DNA from: Escherichia phage vB_EcoM-fFiEco06
Strand: one strand, 5' to 3'
Sequence record: NC_054914.1
DNA: 64,000 nucleotides
The notes beneath the pieces were generated by a model. The model ran no database searches, had not been told where the DNA came from, and saw only the letters and a program-made list of their open reading frames with translations. Positions 31,138 through 36,460 of this stretch are shown here, one piece after another (position 1 is the first letter of the stretch; every line of letters begins with the position of its first letter). Position numbers and translations under genes: made by a program.

Positions 31138-31234
31138 TTCTGTATTTACCCATTACCGCACTTGGGCTCGACCTTATTACAGGTTGGCGGGAATCCCTCA
31201 CAGAATCATGAGGTCCAGGTTATTCCCATGTTAT

Positions 31235-31651
31235 TTAAATGTAAATATTTTTGCCGTAATACTTATACCAGTGTGGCTTCATTAAAATTTTTTCATCGAG
31301 TCGTTGTTGACTCAACTTAATAGCTGATTTACATGGATTATAATCATTTTTCCATTCTACTGGAATATCGCTGATGTCAGGAACTTCAGTATCTTTTATA
31401 CTGAACCCGCGTTTTAAGCATTCCGTTATAATGTCCGATTGACGCTTTCGCAAAAATTCTAACTTATCGTAAAAGAAAGTAACATGACCAGAACCTAAAA
31501 TAAATTTAGAAGATATTTTAAAATCTTTAACGCGCTTACCGTTTGCCACATGCTTACGAACTATACCAAAAACACGCGGCAATTCACGGTATTCTGCGAT
31601 TAAATGTTGATCAGCAAGTTCAGATACTAAAGTCAAATTAATACGAGTCAT
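31235..31651 (-). CDS. denV: Endonuclease V (pyrimidine dimer DNA glycosylase)
   Basis: 138 aa; [17 protein letters not shown]...[10 protein letters not shown]. Confidence 0.92.
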
Positions 31652-31673
31652 TTTATCCCTCCAAGTAACTGTG

Positions 31674-31706
31674 AATATACTATCACAATTCTAGGAGAAA
31701 GTAAAC
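31674..31706 (-). promoter_or_regulatory. T4-type early promoter upstream of denV
   Basis: Minus strand GTTTACTTTCTCCTAGAATTGTGATAGTATATT. Confidence 0.55.
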
Positions 31707-31710
31707 AACT

Positions 31711-32241
<531 letters not shown>

Positions 32242-32697
32242 TTAAAAGAGGCTGTTCATTATTCGGTAAAGTGAAGGACCCATCACATATTGCCACTGAG
32301 TACGAGGAATAAGAGCAAAAGCATCCATCTCTGGAATCATAACGCCATCTTTATTTTCAAAATAAGACTCGCAATGGCAATTTCTAAACATCTCATGCTC
32401 TACTGGAATCGTATAATAAAATAACTGTAAGTCTTTATTACTAGAATATTTAAATACACCTAAGTCTTCTAGAAGGTCTGGATTATAATCGATAAAACCA
32501 GTCTCTTCTGAGCATTCTCTTTTTGCAGCTTCCAGTGCATTCAAATCAGAACTTTCTACACGCCCCTTTGGAATATCCCAGCGATGTGCAATCATTCCAG
32601 GTTTACGAGAACCGGTAACTCGTCCCATAAATAAATCTTTATCTTCTGTCATAAAGATAATACCAGCTGATAATGTTTTCATTTTAATTTCCTGCAT
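32242..32697 (-). CDS. nudE: Nudix hydrolase
   Basis: 151 aa; Nudix box GRVESSDLNALEAAKRECSEETGF. Confidence 0.8.
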   Translation of the reverse strand: MQEIKMKTLSAGIIFMTEDKDLFMGRVTGSRKPGMIAHRWDIPKGRVESSDLNALEAAKRECSEETGFIDYNPDLLEDLGVFKYSSNKDLQLFYYTIPVEHEMFRNCHCESYFENKDGVMIPEMDAFALIPRTQWQYVMGPSLYRIMNSLF

Positions 32698-33167
32698 TCA
32701 GTGATAAAGTTATTTAAATTTTGAGTATATTTCTTTTCATCAAAAATCTTTTGTTGTCTGCGTAAACGCCATGGCATTTCAATGAACATACGCCATATTC
32801 CTGATAATACTGCTGCTGTAAAAATATTAACAAGTATAGTTAAAAGAACCCAATCTCCTATTCTGTCCATTGGATTTTTTATAAAAAAGTAAAATACGAA
32901 CGATGATATAGGAAGACTAATGATATACCACAGAAGAACCTTCTTATCTGTGAACCAATCAGCATTCGTTAACTTAGCGCGACCGTTTTGAATACATACG
33001 AACTTATCATCTGTTACAGTAAATGGCTTAGCTGCTTGATATCCCATTCTAAACTCCCTAATCAACAAATTTTTCATATCTTCGGAACAACCATTCCAGT
33101 CAACTCTATCAACTGAAATGCCATCATCCCCATCATCTAAATCATACCAGCGAGTTTTTAAAATCAT
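32679..33167 (-). CDS. Membrane protein, paralog group (C-terminal CRK motif)
   Basis: 162 aa; two hydrophobic helices; ends FITECRKLK. Confidence 0.5.
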   Translation of the reverse strand: MILKTRWYDLDDGDDGISVDRVDWNGCSEDMKNLLIREFRMGYQAAKPFTVTDDKFVCIQNGRAKLTNADWFTDKKVLLWYIISLPISSFVFYFFIKNPMDRIGDWVLLTILVNIFTAAVLSGIWRMFIEMPWRLRRQQKIFDEKKYTQNLNNFITECRKLK

Positions 33168-33526
33168 TTAATTTTCCTACAATCACTCACAAACTCTTTC
33201 ATTGACTCATTTTCAATATAAGACATGTAGCTATTATATTCTTTTAATTGTATTTTGTAATCCTTTTTTCTTTGCCAATTTATTTTAAAATTATCATAAT
33301 GAAAATATAACATGGTACCAAAGAATGAAAATAATGAAATCGCTATAGTAAAACGAAGTTCACTCCAAACCTCTGTTATAATTACTGTGCCGTCGATATT
33401 TAAAATAAAACAGTCAATTAACAATCCAATAAGACTACCCGCAAGAGCTGTAAATACTGATACAGCAAGAATTAATAGTGCCTCAGGAAACGAATATTTG
33501 ACTTTATTTAGTTTTGGCTTTTGCAT
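33164..33526 (-). CDS. Membrane protein, paralog group (C-terminal CRK motif)
   Basis: 120 aa; hydrophobic helices; ends FVSDCRKIK. Confidence 0.5.
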   Translation of the reverse strand: MQKPKLNKVKYSFPEALLILAVSVFTALAGSLIGLLIDCFILNIDGTVIITEVWSELRFTIAISLFSFFGTMLYFHYDNFKINWQRKKDYKIQLKEYNSYMSYIENESMKEFVSDCRKIK

Positions 33527-33921
33527 CGTGATTCCTTAACAAATTTCATAATTTCATCAAATTCATACATATCTAGCTTAAGCTGGTGTTCCTTTTTAAT
33601 CTTTTTACACTGAGCTTTCCAATCACGTACACGTTTACGATAATGTCTTCCTTGATACCAGTATCCTACCCAATTTACGGGTACTAATAAAAGTGGAACT
33701 ATTAATGGAAGAATTAGCATTAACACAAGTATTTCGCCAGAATCAATATCAGTCATAACATCTAAAACACCTCCAATAATCAATAGAATTACAAATGATA
33801 TGAGTATAACAGGACCTATTAACACATCAGTAGAAATTATCTGACGCTTTGGTTCATACTTCACAGGTTTACTTGGAAGGTATAGTGATGGTTTTGACAT
33901 ATTCTCTACATTCCTTAACAA
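33508..33921 (-). CDS. Membrane protein, paralog group
   Basis: 137 aa; hydrophobic helices; ends KFVKESRCKSQN. Confidence 0.5.
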   Translation of the reverse strand: MLRNVENMSKPSLYLPSKPVKYEPKRQIISTDVLIGPVILISFVILLIIGGVLDVMTDIDSGEILVLMLILPLIVPLLLVPVNWVGYWYQGRHYRKRVRDWKAQCKKIKKEHQLKLDMYEFDEIMKFVKESRCKSQN

Positions 33922-34483
33922 ATTTTTCTAGTAATAAATCACTTTCAAAATTGGGATTTTCTACAAATTTATCAAAAAGATCATCAACAATAGTTAAGAT
34001 ATTCTTTTTACTAAGAATACGTTTATTTTCATGCTTCGTTTCAGAATCAACTATAAGAGTAAAGAAATATTTCTTGCCCTGAAATTTTACAGTAGTATCA
34101 ATATAAAATAAATTTGACTTTTGTAAATTACGTTTAAACCATGCGTCACTTAAACTATAAACACCGAGATAATCAAAATCGTCGTTTAAATAACAAACCG
34201 TCCATTCAGGAGAAATGAAATCAGTAAATTCAACATCAAAATCACACGTCAATGAATGAATTGATTCAATACTGTTAATGAGTATTCCAGGACGTATTAA
34301 AGACTTTTTACCTCTAGAAAATCTTCCGGAAAGGCTTTCATCAGTTTCATATGAAGACCCCCAATAGTAATTACGTCCTTCTGCCATGCGTTTAAGAGCA
34401 TTTAGTAATTGGTCTGGAACATCAACCTGTCTTTGGAACTCTTCAAACATTGAATTGAAATCACTTTGCATTTTCATTTTCAT
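33869..34483 (-). CDS. Hypothetical protein
   Basis: 204 aa; preceded by a UUCG hairpin and a GGAG RBS. Confidence 0.5.
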   Translation of the reverse strand: MKMKMQSDFNSMFEEFQRQVDVPDQLLNALKRMAEGRNYYWGSSYETDESLSGRFSRGKKSLIRPGILINSIESIHSLTCDFDVEFTDFISPEWTVCYLNDDFDYLGVYSLSDAWFKRNLQKSNLFYIDTTVKFQGKKYFFTLIVDSETKHENKRILSKKNILTIVDDLFDKFVENPNFESDLLLEKFVKECREYVKTITIPSK

Positions 34484-34502
34484 TCCTATTTACTCCAAGT
34501 AT

Positions 34503-34520
34503 AAGGGGCCGAAGCCCCTT
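34503..34520 (-). terminator. Intercistronic UUCG hairpin (no U-tract; RNA stability/processing element)
   Basis: AAGGGGC-UUCG-GCCCCUU between a stop codon and the next RBS. Confidence 0.4.
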
Positions 34521-34524
34521 ATCA

Positions 34525-35118
34525 TTATTTCAGAGAATTAATGTATTCCTGAACATCGGCAGAGGTAGTTTCAACCCCAGAAATATTACCGTTAAAGGTT
34601 TCAACTCGAGCAAGGGTATCTTCAATATCAACCTTAGTCAGTGCTGCAATTTCAACTACATCATCAGCAGTACTAATTCCAAGGGCATTCGCTGCACGAG
34701 TTTCACGGATATATTCCAATTTAACCGCAAGTTCTTGACGAGCATCATCTAACTCAACTACTTTCTTGGCGATTTCAATTCGCATTTCAGCATAACCGTC
34801 AGCCTTAGTAGTCAACTGCTCAGCTGTTCGACGATATAGTAAACCGAGTTTAGCATGCATTGTTACATCTTGGCCTTCGGAAAGAAGTTTACGAATTTCA
34901 CGCTCTTTTGATTCGGCCTGTCGATTCTTTTCGATAACAAGTTCACGAATACGTTTTTCTTCGTTAATAGATTTAACAGAAGCAGTTTTTAGATCTTTAA
35001 TTTTATCAAGTAGTTTTGCTGCTGCAGCAGTATACTGTTCTTCGACAGATAGATTTTTAGCCATAGCAGAACCAAGTTTAGTGCGAATAAACTCAACAAT
35101 TTTCTTCAGTGTGTTCAT
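34525..35118 (-). CDS. Coiled-coil protein (PspA-like heptad character)
   Basis: 197 aa, largely helical charged repeats. Confidence 0.45.
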
Positions 35119-35407
35119 AGTATTTCCTTAGGTTAATTGAGATTTAAAATCCATGAGAGTATTATACTCCGGATAGTTTGTAAACTATTTCAACATCGCC
35201 TTTTGCTGCTTTATAACCTTCAGCCCAAGATACAACCGAGTTTTTATCCGAAGATTCAAATTCTGGCATTGGGCTTTCGCCAATGTTCACGCAGTATGTT
35301 TCTTCATTTTCGTCGAACCAAATAATTAAAGTAGTCATTTATTTCTCCGTTTTCTGTATTTGTTTTGATAAGTCTATAATAACACCGTCCTTGGCGTTTG
35401 TACACAA

Positions 35408-35870: not shown

Positions 35871-35906
35871 AGATACCAAAAAGCCCCAACCTTTTGGTCG
35901 GGGCTA
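35871..35906 (-). terminator. Rho-independent terminator (copy 1 of duplicated terminator)
   Basis: AGCCCCGACC-AAAAG-GUUGGGGCU followed by UUUUUGG; downstream of ORF 35913..36386. Confidence 0.7.
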
Positions 35907-35912
35907 AGAATG

Positions 35913-36386
35913 TTATTTGATTTGTTTAGCAGACCAAATGCGGTCTTTAATAATTTTTTGGATGTCTTCAACATACTCAAGAGAGTGAACATGTGGGTTA
36001 TCTTTGAAACTATAAGCACGAGCTAGCTTTTGGCCTTCAGTTTTGATTACTAAAAGCTCTTTAAGGATAGCTTCATATTTGGAGATAATTCCTTTAACAA
36101 TATTTTTCTCTTGTGTGACTTTAGGATCTGCTTTAGGAGCAGGTTTACCTGAAGCCTTTGCAAAAGCAGCTCCAGTAGCAACTAAACTTTTCCAAGCCAT
36201 ACTAACTGCATTCCCTGTAAATCCTTCGGCTTTCATATCACGAGCAAATTGGAATCGTGATTCATCGGAAGCATCTTTATAGGAATATTTACCCGCGGCA
36301 ATGGCAGCTTTTGCAACAGCTTGAATTTCAGTGCTAGATGCTTCATTTAACACCGCTTCATTTAAAAATTGAGTATATGATTTCAT
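35913..36386 (-). CDS. Internal-protein-like late gene (capsid-targeting N-terminus)
   Basis: 157 aa Ala/Lys-rich; N-terminus MKSYTQFLNE resembles the T4 capsid-targeting sequence MKTYQEFIAE; TATAAATA late promoter upstream. Confidence 0.5.
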   Translation of the reverse strand: MKSYTQFLNEAVLNEASSTEIQAVAKAAIAAGKYSYKDASDESRFQFARDMKAEGFTGNAVSMAWKSLVATGAAFAKASGKPAPKADPKVTQEKNIVKGIISKYEAILKELLVIKTEGQKLARAYSFKDNPHVHSLEYVEDIQKIIKDRIWSAKQIK

Positions 36387-36430: not shown

Positions 36431-36460
36431 CTAAAAAGCCCCAACCTTTCGGTCGGGGCT
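36431..36460 (-). terminator. Rho-independent terminator (copy 2) ending the tRNA/stable-RNA transcription unit
   Basis: AGCCCCGACC-GAAAG-GUUGGGGCU followed by UUUUUAG; about 30 nt shared with copy 1. Confidence 0.7.

Follow-up and report, generated by a model that had tools for sequence, protein, structure and literature searches.

T-even phages encode small early accessory proteins that are situated in the inner membrane or periplasm, such as Imm (superinfection immunity) and Sp (spackle). Imm is a two-helix protein of 83 amino acids (aa) without a long cytoplasmic tail, and Sp is periplasmic. The e.2, e.3 and e.4 genes, which likewise encode small early accessory proteins, are already known, having been on the T4 map for decades, and are placed in separate Pfam or PHROG families of unknown function. 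In T4, the mRNAs of e.2 to e.5 are classed as early, and all four proteins were detected, e.4 and e.5 as early, e.2 as middle and e.3 as late proteins (PMC9697503 supplements). Knock-down of each of these four T4 genes with dCas13d (CRISPRi-ART) was scored 'Not Fit', that is, no fitness defect in the laboratory host (PMC11879866 supplement 15). For the variable regions of T4-type genomes, modular shuffling has been described together with PeSLs, which are intergenic promoter-plus-terminator units (PMC2839356; Comeau et al. 2014, PMC4122927). Here we analysed the window, a stretch of 64,000 nucleotides (nt) from Escherichia phage vB_EcoM-fFiEco06 (NC_054914.1), with respect to three consecutive minus-strand open reading frames (ORFs) at 32679-33167, 33164-33526 and 33508-33900. 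An original prediction, made from the letters of this DNA, had proposed for these ORFs a family of three tandem paralogous membrane proteins, with related C-terminal tails, acting in superinfection exclusion, lysis timing or envelope-targeted counter-defence.

By megablast, the region 31200-35200 of the window, itself a Tequatrovirus sequence, was found to be 100% identical in DNA to MG781191 (Escherichia phage vB_EcoM-fHoEco02, Tequatrovirus), and matches at 90-99% identity were obtained for hundreds of T4-like phages. The three ORFs were present as predicted. In the annotation of MG781191 they are E.2, E.3 and E.4, flanked by E.5 and E.6 on one side and by nudE, the lysozyme gene e and denV on the other; in the direction of transcription they lie upstream of nudE and e, and not after these genes as had been stated. 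Three separate PHROG families were assigned, namely 2203 ('membrane protein'; E = 3.3e-78 over residues 1-160) for the 162-aa e.2 product, 2330 (E = 3.2e-58 over residues 1-118) for the 120-aa e.3 product, and 2604 (E = 1.7e-70) for the 130-aa e.4 product. T4 e.2, e.3 and e.4 (UniProt Y06M, Y06N and Y06O) are orthologues and are likewise annotated as 'predicted membrane protein'. Identity to the corresponding T4 DNA is about 94%, and at the protein level e.3 and e.4 reach 83% and 89%, respectively; the synteny e.6-e.5-e.4-e.3-e.2-nudE-e is common to both phages. By annotation, family assignment and gene order, the three ORFs were shown to correspond to the T4-type early accessory genes e.2, e.3 and e.4. 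Differences from T4 were also observed. T4 e.2 is cut to 102 aa by loss of 1 nt in an A-run (six A in the window, five in T4), whereas the full 162 aa are encoded here. The window phage lacks ipII and ipIII between e and denV, and carries other genes in place of e.7.

As a whole, our analysis leans, by a modest degree of confidence, toward the explanation that these e.2-e.4 genes carry a C-terminal tail module under selection, that recombination takes place at its repeated coding sequence, and that the tail may form a docking helix.

Shared C-terminal tail of the e.2 to e.5 products

The conserved core of the tails was identified as F-[IV]-x-[ED]-C-[RK], instead of the proposed Cys-Arg-Lys, at the ends of e.2, e.3 and e.5, and e.4 carries a degenerate form, F-V-K-E-S-R. 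The e.5 gene (33869-34477, minus strand; PHROG 2607), which had been overlooked in the count of three members, is a fourth tail carrier; it encodes a soluble protein of 202 aa with the strict motif FVKECREY in its tail, …LLLEKFVKECREYVKTITIPSK. When the window was translated in six frames, three matches to the strict motif F[IV]x[ED]C[RK] were obtained, namely the tails of e.2, e.3 and e.5. After the 167-kb genome was rebuilt from the window and the remainder of MG781191, the motif was again counted three times among the 334,144 residues of the six-frame translation, whereas 0.67 matches would be expected at any position. The three matches share one strand, are contained in 1.25 kb and precede the stops of e.2, e.3 and e.5 by 3-11 residues; at the other gene junctions of the rebuilt genome, the strict motif was not found.

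The raw pairwise similarity was weak, with Smith-Waterman z values of 3.3 for e.2-e.3, 3.0 for e.3-e.4 and 1.2 for e.2-e.4. A 17-column hidden Markov model (HMM) of the tail, constructed from e.3 orthologues only, was run against 922 window pieces; apart from e.3 itself, e.2 scored best (E = 6.9e-4), followed by e.5 (E = 0.024). When the e.3 profile was compared by hhalign with 470 genome pieces of at least 70 aa, e.2, e.5 and e.4 were ranked 1, 2 and 3 of the 469 non-self pieces, and all three were aligned at the last 13 residues. With cross-genus profiles, the hhalign match of e.3 to e.4 has a probability of 90.1% and covers 42 columns from the end of the second transmembrane segment (TM2) onward; e.3 matched e.2 with 91.8% over 20 columns, and e.5 matched e.2 with 66.9% over 22 columns. 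These observations confirmed that the relatedness of the tails is non-random and beyond chance. The significant alignments were all within the C-terminal 13-42 residues, and the membrane hairpins of e.2, e.3 and e.4 were aligned in no comparison. Since the hairpins never align, the profile comparisons support a shared C-terminal, presumably cytoplasmic, module with significant similarity between members rather than paralogy of the whole proteins; the predicted paralogy stands for the tails only.

Two hydrophobic segments, as originally predicted, were detected by Kyte-Doolittle hydropathy in each of e.2, e.3 and e.4 (mean values 2.08 and 1.85 for e.2, 2.29 and 1.32 for e.3, and 2.95 and 2.20 for e.4; all positions on the minus strand). 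In e.2, TM1 (aa 77-96, nt 32880-32939) and TM2 (aa 106-129, nt 32781-32852) are placed between a small N-terminal domain (aa 1-76), predicted to be cytoplasmic, and a predicted basic cytoplasmic helix ending in NNFITECRKLK. In e.3, a basic N-terminus is followed by TM1 (aa 16-44, nt 33395-33481), TM2 (aa 59-77, nt 33296-33352) and a predicted cytoplasmic tail of 43 residues with the end KEFVSDCRKIK. In e.4, TM1 (aa 26-46, nt 33763-33825) and TM2 (aa 57-81, nt 33658-33732) precede a highly basic, predicted cytoplasmic tail of 49 residues ending in KFVKESRCKSQN. Because Lys and Arg are concentrated in the N- and C-terminal segments, and because the short connecting loops, predicted to be periplasmic (9-14 residues), are acidic or neutral, the three proteins are likely two-helix inner-membrane hairpins with both termini inside. 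In the AlphaFold2 (AF2) model of e.2 (nine sequences; predicted local distance difference test score, pLDDT, 74), the N-terminal part forms a small alpha/beta domain, residues 69-96 are helical, and residues 105-160 make up a single uninterrupted helix, so that the tail would prolong TM2 into the cytoplasm. The soluble e.5 has no hydrophobic segment (maximum 19-residue Kyte-Doolittle value 0.87), and its AF2 model from a single sequence was unusable (pLDDT 38). In the loop between the membrane helices of e.3 (window about 33386-33394), a four-residue insertion polymorphism, NI-DGTV versus NIRSNVSGII, was noted, which gives 120-aa and 124-aa forms of e.3 among Tequatrovirus phages.

In this window, the motif codons also supply the Shine-Dalgarno sequence of the next gene, the peptide and the ribosome-binding site being written on the same bases. 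On the minus strand, the e.2 motif at 32691-32708 is read from the sequence as TTT ATC ACT GAA TGC AGG (F I T E C R); the nudE Shine-Dalgarno AGGAAA (32688-32693) is inside this tail, and the nudE ATG (32680-32682) overlaps the e.2 stop as ATGA. The e.3 motif at 33176-33193, TTT GTG AGT GAT TGT AGG (F V S D C R), is followed in the same manner, with the e.2 Shine-Dalgarno AGGAAA (33173-33178) inside the e.3 tail and the e.2 ATG (33165-33167) overlapping the e.3 stop as ATGA. The degenerate e.4 motif at 33526-33543, TTT GTT AAG GAA TCA CGA (F V K E S R), includes the e.3 Shine-Dalgarno AAGGAA (33532-33537), and the e.3 ATG (33524-33526) lies across the e.4 codons CGA-TGC, the Cys codon of the e.4 tail having bases in common with the e.3 start codon. 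In e.5, the motif at 33905-33922, TTT GTT AAG GAA TGT AGA (F V K E C R), carries AAGGAA (33911-33916) upstream of the e.4 ATG (33898-33900). The tail of e.2 ends as TGC AGG AAA TTA AAA TGA and that of e.3 as TGT AGG AAA ATT AAA TGA; the e.4 tail reads AAG GAA TCA CGA TGC and the e.5 tail AAG GAA TGT AGA GAA TAT G, and the latter two are identical over 15 nt (AATTTGTTAAGGAAT). RNA folding of the four junctions gave no common or significant structure, and a conserved RNA element at these junctions was ruled out. Inside the block from e.5 to nudE, promoter-like sites were not enriched (24 found, 22.3 expected), and no terminator-like hairpins were detected on the coding strand.

Selection on the tail and recombination at its repeats

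The tail peptide is kept in Mosigvirus, Gaprivervirus and Dhakavirus orthologues, for instance as NFIKECRK, TFIKECKS, SFIEECRK and QFIMECREY. An exhaustive HMMER search with e.2 against 1.84 billion representatives gave 16 proteins, which are orthologues, fragments, chimeras and a few repetitive eukaryote-like proteins regarded as spurious. The e.2 orthologues detected at 31-38% identity end in FIKECRK, FIEECRK, FIKMCRNS, FIKGCRK or FIKGCRNGHN. In the alignment of e.2 orthologues (25-35% identity), F154, I155, C158 and R159 make up 4 of the 19 invariant columns, and in that of e.5 orthologues (21-24% identity), 8 of the 19 invariant columns fall in the tail (L183, F186, E189, C190, R191, E192, Y193 and K195). 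Over 52 distinct tail DNAs, Arg is encoded by CGC (5), CGA (7), CGT (6), AGG (14) and AGA (16), and Cys by TGC (16) and TGT (26). The motif also persists, in the form F-[IV]-x-[EDM]-C-[RK], where the Shine-Dalgarno sequence lies elsewhere: in the metagenomic contig L028 it follows the motif or the stop codon, and in e.5 of Dhakavirus and Gaprivervirus type it is located outside the motif codons (TTT ATT GCT GAA TGT CGC). Among 14 Tequatrovirus sequences, the ratio of nonsynonymous to synonymous change (dN/dS) was 0.07-0.15 in the C-terminal cytoplasmic segments, with an ordinary level of synonymous difference (pS, 0.15-0.23), and 0.41-0.64 in the membrane hairpins. The distant conservation, the synonymous codon change, the persistence with the Shine-Dalgarno elsewhere, the dN/dS contrast and the lack of shared junction RNA structure together led us to regard the motif as selected for as protein. 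As judged from these alignments, it is a protein-level module, which four genera and distant metagenomic relatives retain despite turnover of synonymous codons, and the dN/dS values indicate that selection acts on the basic C-terminal cytoplasmic helix and not on the membrane hairpin.

Natural genomes that lack single members of the block were then compared at the tails. In the IMG/VR contig L009 (167,948 bp), the tail of e.3 passes into that of e.2 inside the common TGCAGGAAA; e.2 is removed exactly, and e.3 is coupled to nudE. BLAST alignments of several Tequatrovirus genomes (H53-H56) end exactly at this e.3/e.2 tail junction. Of the Tequatrovirus-level records, about 446 contain e.2 and about 500 contain e.3 and e.4; about 50 of roughly 500 Tequatrovirus records, or about 10%, are without e.2. 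In L011, L014 and L016, e.4 is gone and the e.5 tail is a hybrid with the e.4 tail (…KEVQNGAA, compared with …KEVRNGTA for e.4 in L012). These comparisons showed exact deletions of e.2 and of e.4 in natural phages by tail-to-tail recombination. A fusion of another kind was observed in phage vB_EcoM-UFV05 (P0143), in which e.4(1-31) and e.2(88-162) are joined in frame within the first membrane helices, with deletion of e.3. One further chimera, an 83-aa called protein with an unrelated soluble N-terminus and the last 23 e.2 residues (P0205/L025, an ENA metagenome scaffold of 524 bp), may be an artefact of assembly or gene calling because the contig did not translate to the query protein.

With the spacing L/M-x-x-F-[IV]-x-x-C, the hydrophobic residues and the Cys come to lie on the same face of a helix. 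The pattern of conservation suggests that the cytoplasmic helix is the working part, with the hairpin serving as its anchor. Early in infection, the hairpins would hold the common helix at the cytoplasmic membrane, on the inner side, and the hydrophobic face of the helix may dock on a common partner, which could be one another, e.5 or a host factor. A docking or oligomerisation helix common to e.2, e.3, e.4 and e.5 would then provide a conditionally useful accessory function, dispensable in laboratory hosts. We thus infer a membrane-tethered docking or oligomerisation helix for the e.2-e.5 group. In a wider proposal, the F-[IV]-x-E-C-R helix would serve as a portable tag for docking, by which otherwise unrelated early proteins (three hairpins together with soluble e.5) are brought to a single partner at the inner membrane face; its coding sequence would double as a recombination site preserving frame and ribosome-binding site, and e.5-e.2 would be a small cassette array, with members gained, lost and fused while the overlaps of starts and stops stay intact. 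In this full form, the proposal is rather unlikely to hold.

Several points weigh against the explanation that we favour. The profile match of e.4 to e.2 is weak (32.6% probability by hhalign), and the alignments are shallow, with an effective number of sequences (Neff) of 2-3. The motif Cys is missing from e.4, which has an invariant Cys98 further upstream instead, and therefore a single common binding mode is not assured. The topology is a prediction, and the loop of e.2 carries no net charge. In the Tequatrovirus tails, little variation is seen at any of the codon positions, which indicates that nucleotide constraint from the overlaps and ribosome-binding sites also contributes, and pS is 0.07 in the e.5 tail overlapping e.4. 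The docking idea comes from the conservation pattern and the helical periodicity, and no homology that would assign a function to these genes was detected.

In our initial hypothesis, the tail was a mere shadow of nucleotide signals: the frame of the upstream gene would run across the Shine-Dalgarno and start codon of its overlapping neighbour downstream, and the proteins would otherwise be unrelated. Every motif of the window indeed contains or abuts AAGGAA or AGGAAA at 5-10 nt ahead of the next ATG, and the e.4 Cys codon overlapping the e.3 ATG, the 15 identical nt of the e.4 and e.5 tails and the low pS of 0.07 are all as such a shadow would leave them. The residues are, however, fixed when Arg is written as both AGR and CGN and Cys by both codons; the motif persists in L028 and in Dhakavirus- and Gaprivervirus-type e.5, in which the Shine-Dalgarno is past the motif or the stop; F, I, C and R belong to the 19 columns without variation in the distant e.2 orthologues; and neither a common junction RNA structure nor a motif at any other junction of the genome was detected. 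On the codon and cross-genus data, this hypothesis was dropped as main explanation, and we consider it largely refuted and very unlikely. An action on the envelope, by superinfection exclusion like Imm or Sp, by lysis timing or by counter-defence, was the function originally guessed. The early transcription, the small two-helix inner-membrane architecture as in Imm and the accessory, variable gene content agree with this, and a membrane arms race could produce hairpins and loops that evolve faster (dN/dS 0.41-0.64). Against such a role, Pfam, NCBIfam and PADLOC scans of e.2-e.5 gave sub-threshold noise only: PADLOC models had no match to e.2, e.3, e.4 or e.5 at E up to 1, and no exclusion or immunity family of Pfam was matched at E up to 1, the models for T4 exclusion and lysis proteins included. 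The phage's own Imm was matched by the e.3 profile with 7.8% probability over 22 columns (hhalign), the predicted periplasmic loops are only 9-14 residues long with the conserved residues on the cytoplasmic side, the motif is present also in the soluble e.5, and e.2 is frameshifted in T4 and absent from about 10% of Tequatrovirus records. The T4 knock-down had no fitness effect (PMC11879866), although such an assay is blind to whether a second phage is excluded. Searches of PDB sequences, with the single proteins as well as with profiles, gave no match, the e.2 model gave only orthologues and anonymous small membrane proteins when compared with viral structures by Foldseek, and in full-text literature searches directed at these genes no functional study was found, only omics and screen tables being useful. 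We judge an action of e.2-e.4 on the envelope unlikely, although a conditional role there is compatible with these results.

Full-length paralogy is compatible with the explanation favoured above, and has better prospects than the two preceding alternatives, even if we hold it to be somewhat less probable than its opposite. In this case, e.2, e.3 and e.4 would have arisen from one two-helix ancestor by tandem duplication, with hairpins diverged past recognition. All three have the same architecture and part order, and the e.3-e.4 profile match (90%) extends over 42 columns from the end of TM2. In L028, nudE is preceded by four consecutive genes for two-helix proteins; two tandem members are clearly paralogous both to one another and to e.3 (E = 2e-16), and the tail of one of these two is e.4-like. 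By reciprocal phmmer searches, e.3-type and e.4-type proteins are connected through intermediates at E = 5e-4 to 1e-2, such as L028_g2 with VR7 e.4 (5e-4) and VR7 e.3 with Mosigvirus e.4 (7e-3), and the tail repeats offer a ready mechanism for unequal crossing-over. However, the hairpins align in no comparison, e.2 has an extra N-terminal domain and matches the others over 13-20 tail residues only, and the same tail is carried by the soluble e.5. Because the tail sits there on an unrelated body, it may have spread by recombination and not by whole-gene duplication.

Gene limits and neighbourhood of the block

For e.4, the 137-aa form of the original prediction would start from TTG at 33921; the ORF was found as described, and the start is most likely the ATG at 33900, giving 130 aa. 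This choice is based on the record annotation, on the alignment of PHROG 2604, of which positions 1-130 match residues 8-137 of the 137-aa form, on the upstream AAGGAA, the TTG being without a ribosome-binding site, and on the N-terminus, in which M1, Y7, P9, S10, K11 and P12 are invariant across genera. In precomputed Pfam assignments, e.2 is Phage_T4_Y06M (PF26896), e.4 is Phage_T4_Y06O (PF26873) and e.5 is Phage_T4_Y06P (PF26876), and e.3 belongs to no Pfam family. PF26896 is precomputed for all close e.2 homologues and for the identical protein in L030; the Pfam copy that we scanned was without this model. The 'sulfurtransferase' label on e.3 and e.4 homologues in several NCBI records, and 'DNA primase' on e.3 in one, look like propagated annotation errors; NCBIfam gave no match for e.3 and only sub-threshold unrelated ones for e.4. 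Homologues of e.6 are labelled 'host specificity protein' in several NCBI records.

The genes from e.5 through nudE form one tightly packed block, in which e.4 sits between e.5 and e.3, and e.3 between e.4 and e.2, and every stop codon overlaps the next start (32 nt for e.5/e.4, 19 nt for e.4/e.3, and ATGA for both e.3/e.2 and e.2/nudE). A GC-rich hairpin (ATAAGGGGCTTCGGCCCCTTAT, coding strand) at 34501-34522, directly after e.6 and before the e.5 ribosome-binding site, marks the upstream limit of this overlapping block. The start of nudE is ambiguous: the ATG at 32697 (151 aa, T4 annotation) is inside the e.2 codons E-C-R, and the alternative ATG at 32682 (146 aa, MG781191 annotation) has the ATGA overlap with the e.2 stop and AGGAAA upstream. 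In T4 (L002:2860-3330; NC_000866 67490-67960), the remainder of e.2, tail codons included, persists as 'non-coding' DNA, and the annotated nudE start (MQEIKM…) is inside the former e.2 tail. Relative to MG781191, the window has 10 extra bases somewhere upstream of 31200, as position 1 corresponds to record position 32001 and 31200 to 63190; the window may thus derive from a near-identical phage or from another assembly.

Orthologues of e.3 are present in Mosigvirus and Gaprivervirus. The location of e.2 directly upstream of nudE in the e-to-tRNA region is the same in L026 and L028, and one small ORF lies between the two genes in Dhakavirus IME341 (L005), L027 and L029. Downstream of e.3 in Mosigvirus SA79RD (L003:2857-3651) and Gaprivervirus VR7 (L004:2851-4110), three to five tandem soluble paralogues of 65-101 aa occupy the position of Tequatrovirus e.2 and nudE. 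They end in G-W-V-S-S-S-x-x-C followed by TAAGGAA, and are the second family in this variable region in which tandem members share a conserved Cys tail at the C-terminus.

Relation to known systems of T-even phages

The shared tail module and its part in exact gene loss are unremarked as far as our searches show, and make a modest new observation on these known genes. What is added here is a motif linking four adjacent 'orphan' families, an indication that selection preserves the cytoplasmic tails and not the membrane parts, and natural cases of exact gene loss through repeated tails. The tail helix and its Cys offer a defined experimental handle on genes scored dispensable in genome-wide knock-down screens. 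If the tails dock on a common partner, its identification would assign function to four T4 genes together.

With Imm, the e.2-e.4 proteins have in common the small size, the early accessory character and the two-helix organization, and no sequence relationship was found (no Pfam match; 7.8% for Imm against the e.3 profile). Unlike Imm and Sp, they have their conserved residues in a cytoplasmic tail of 33-49 residues. The four junctions of the block are arranged as ordinary ATGA junctions with the Shine-Dalgarno in the upstream gene. Such ordinary junctions are without conserved peptide, whereas a six-residue motif, degenerate in e.4, is found here at four consecutive junctions and at no other in the genome.

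In the wider surroundings, two strong terminator-like hairpins of nearly the same sequence, AGCCCCGACC[G/A]AAAGGTTGGGGCT with a T-run behind it, are located at 36437-36460 and 35882-35905 (minus strand). They bracket a 157-aa ORF (35913-36386) without counterpart at the T4 e.7 position, an organization that resembles PeSL-type cassettes.

The e.5-to-nudE block itself resembles the PeSL system in that short repeats stand at gene boundaries of a variable region, and recombination between the copies removes or exchanges single accessory genes, as observed for e.2 in L009 and for e.4 in L011, L014 and L016, each with hybrid tails at the junction. An early sigma-70 promoter plus terminator stem-loop between genes, as in PeSLs, was not recognised at these junctions, which have no intergenic space. 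In contrast to PeSLs, the repeat is a coding sequence of 10-18 nt, which specifies the C-terminal peptide motif and the ribosome-binding site of the next gene; because of this coding nature, exchanges at the tails keep the reading frames and the overlapping arrangement of starts and stops. For T-even variable regions, the block adds a second example of reshuffling, based on coding sequence.

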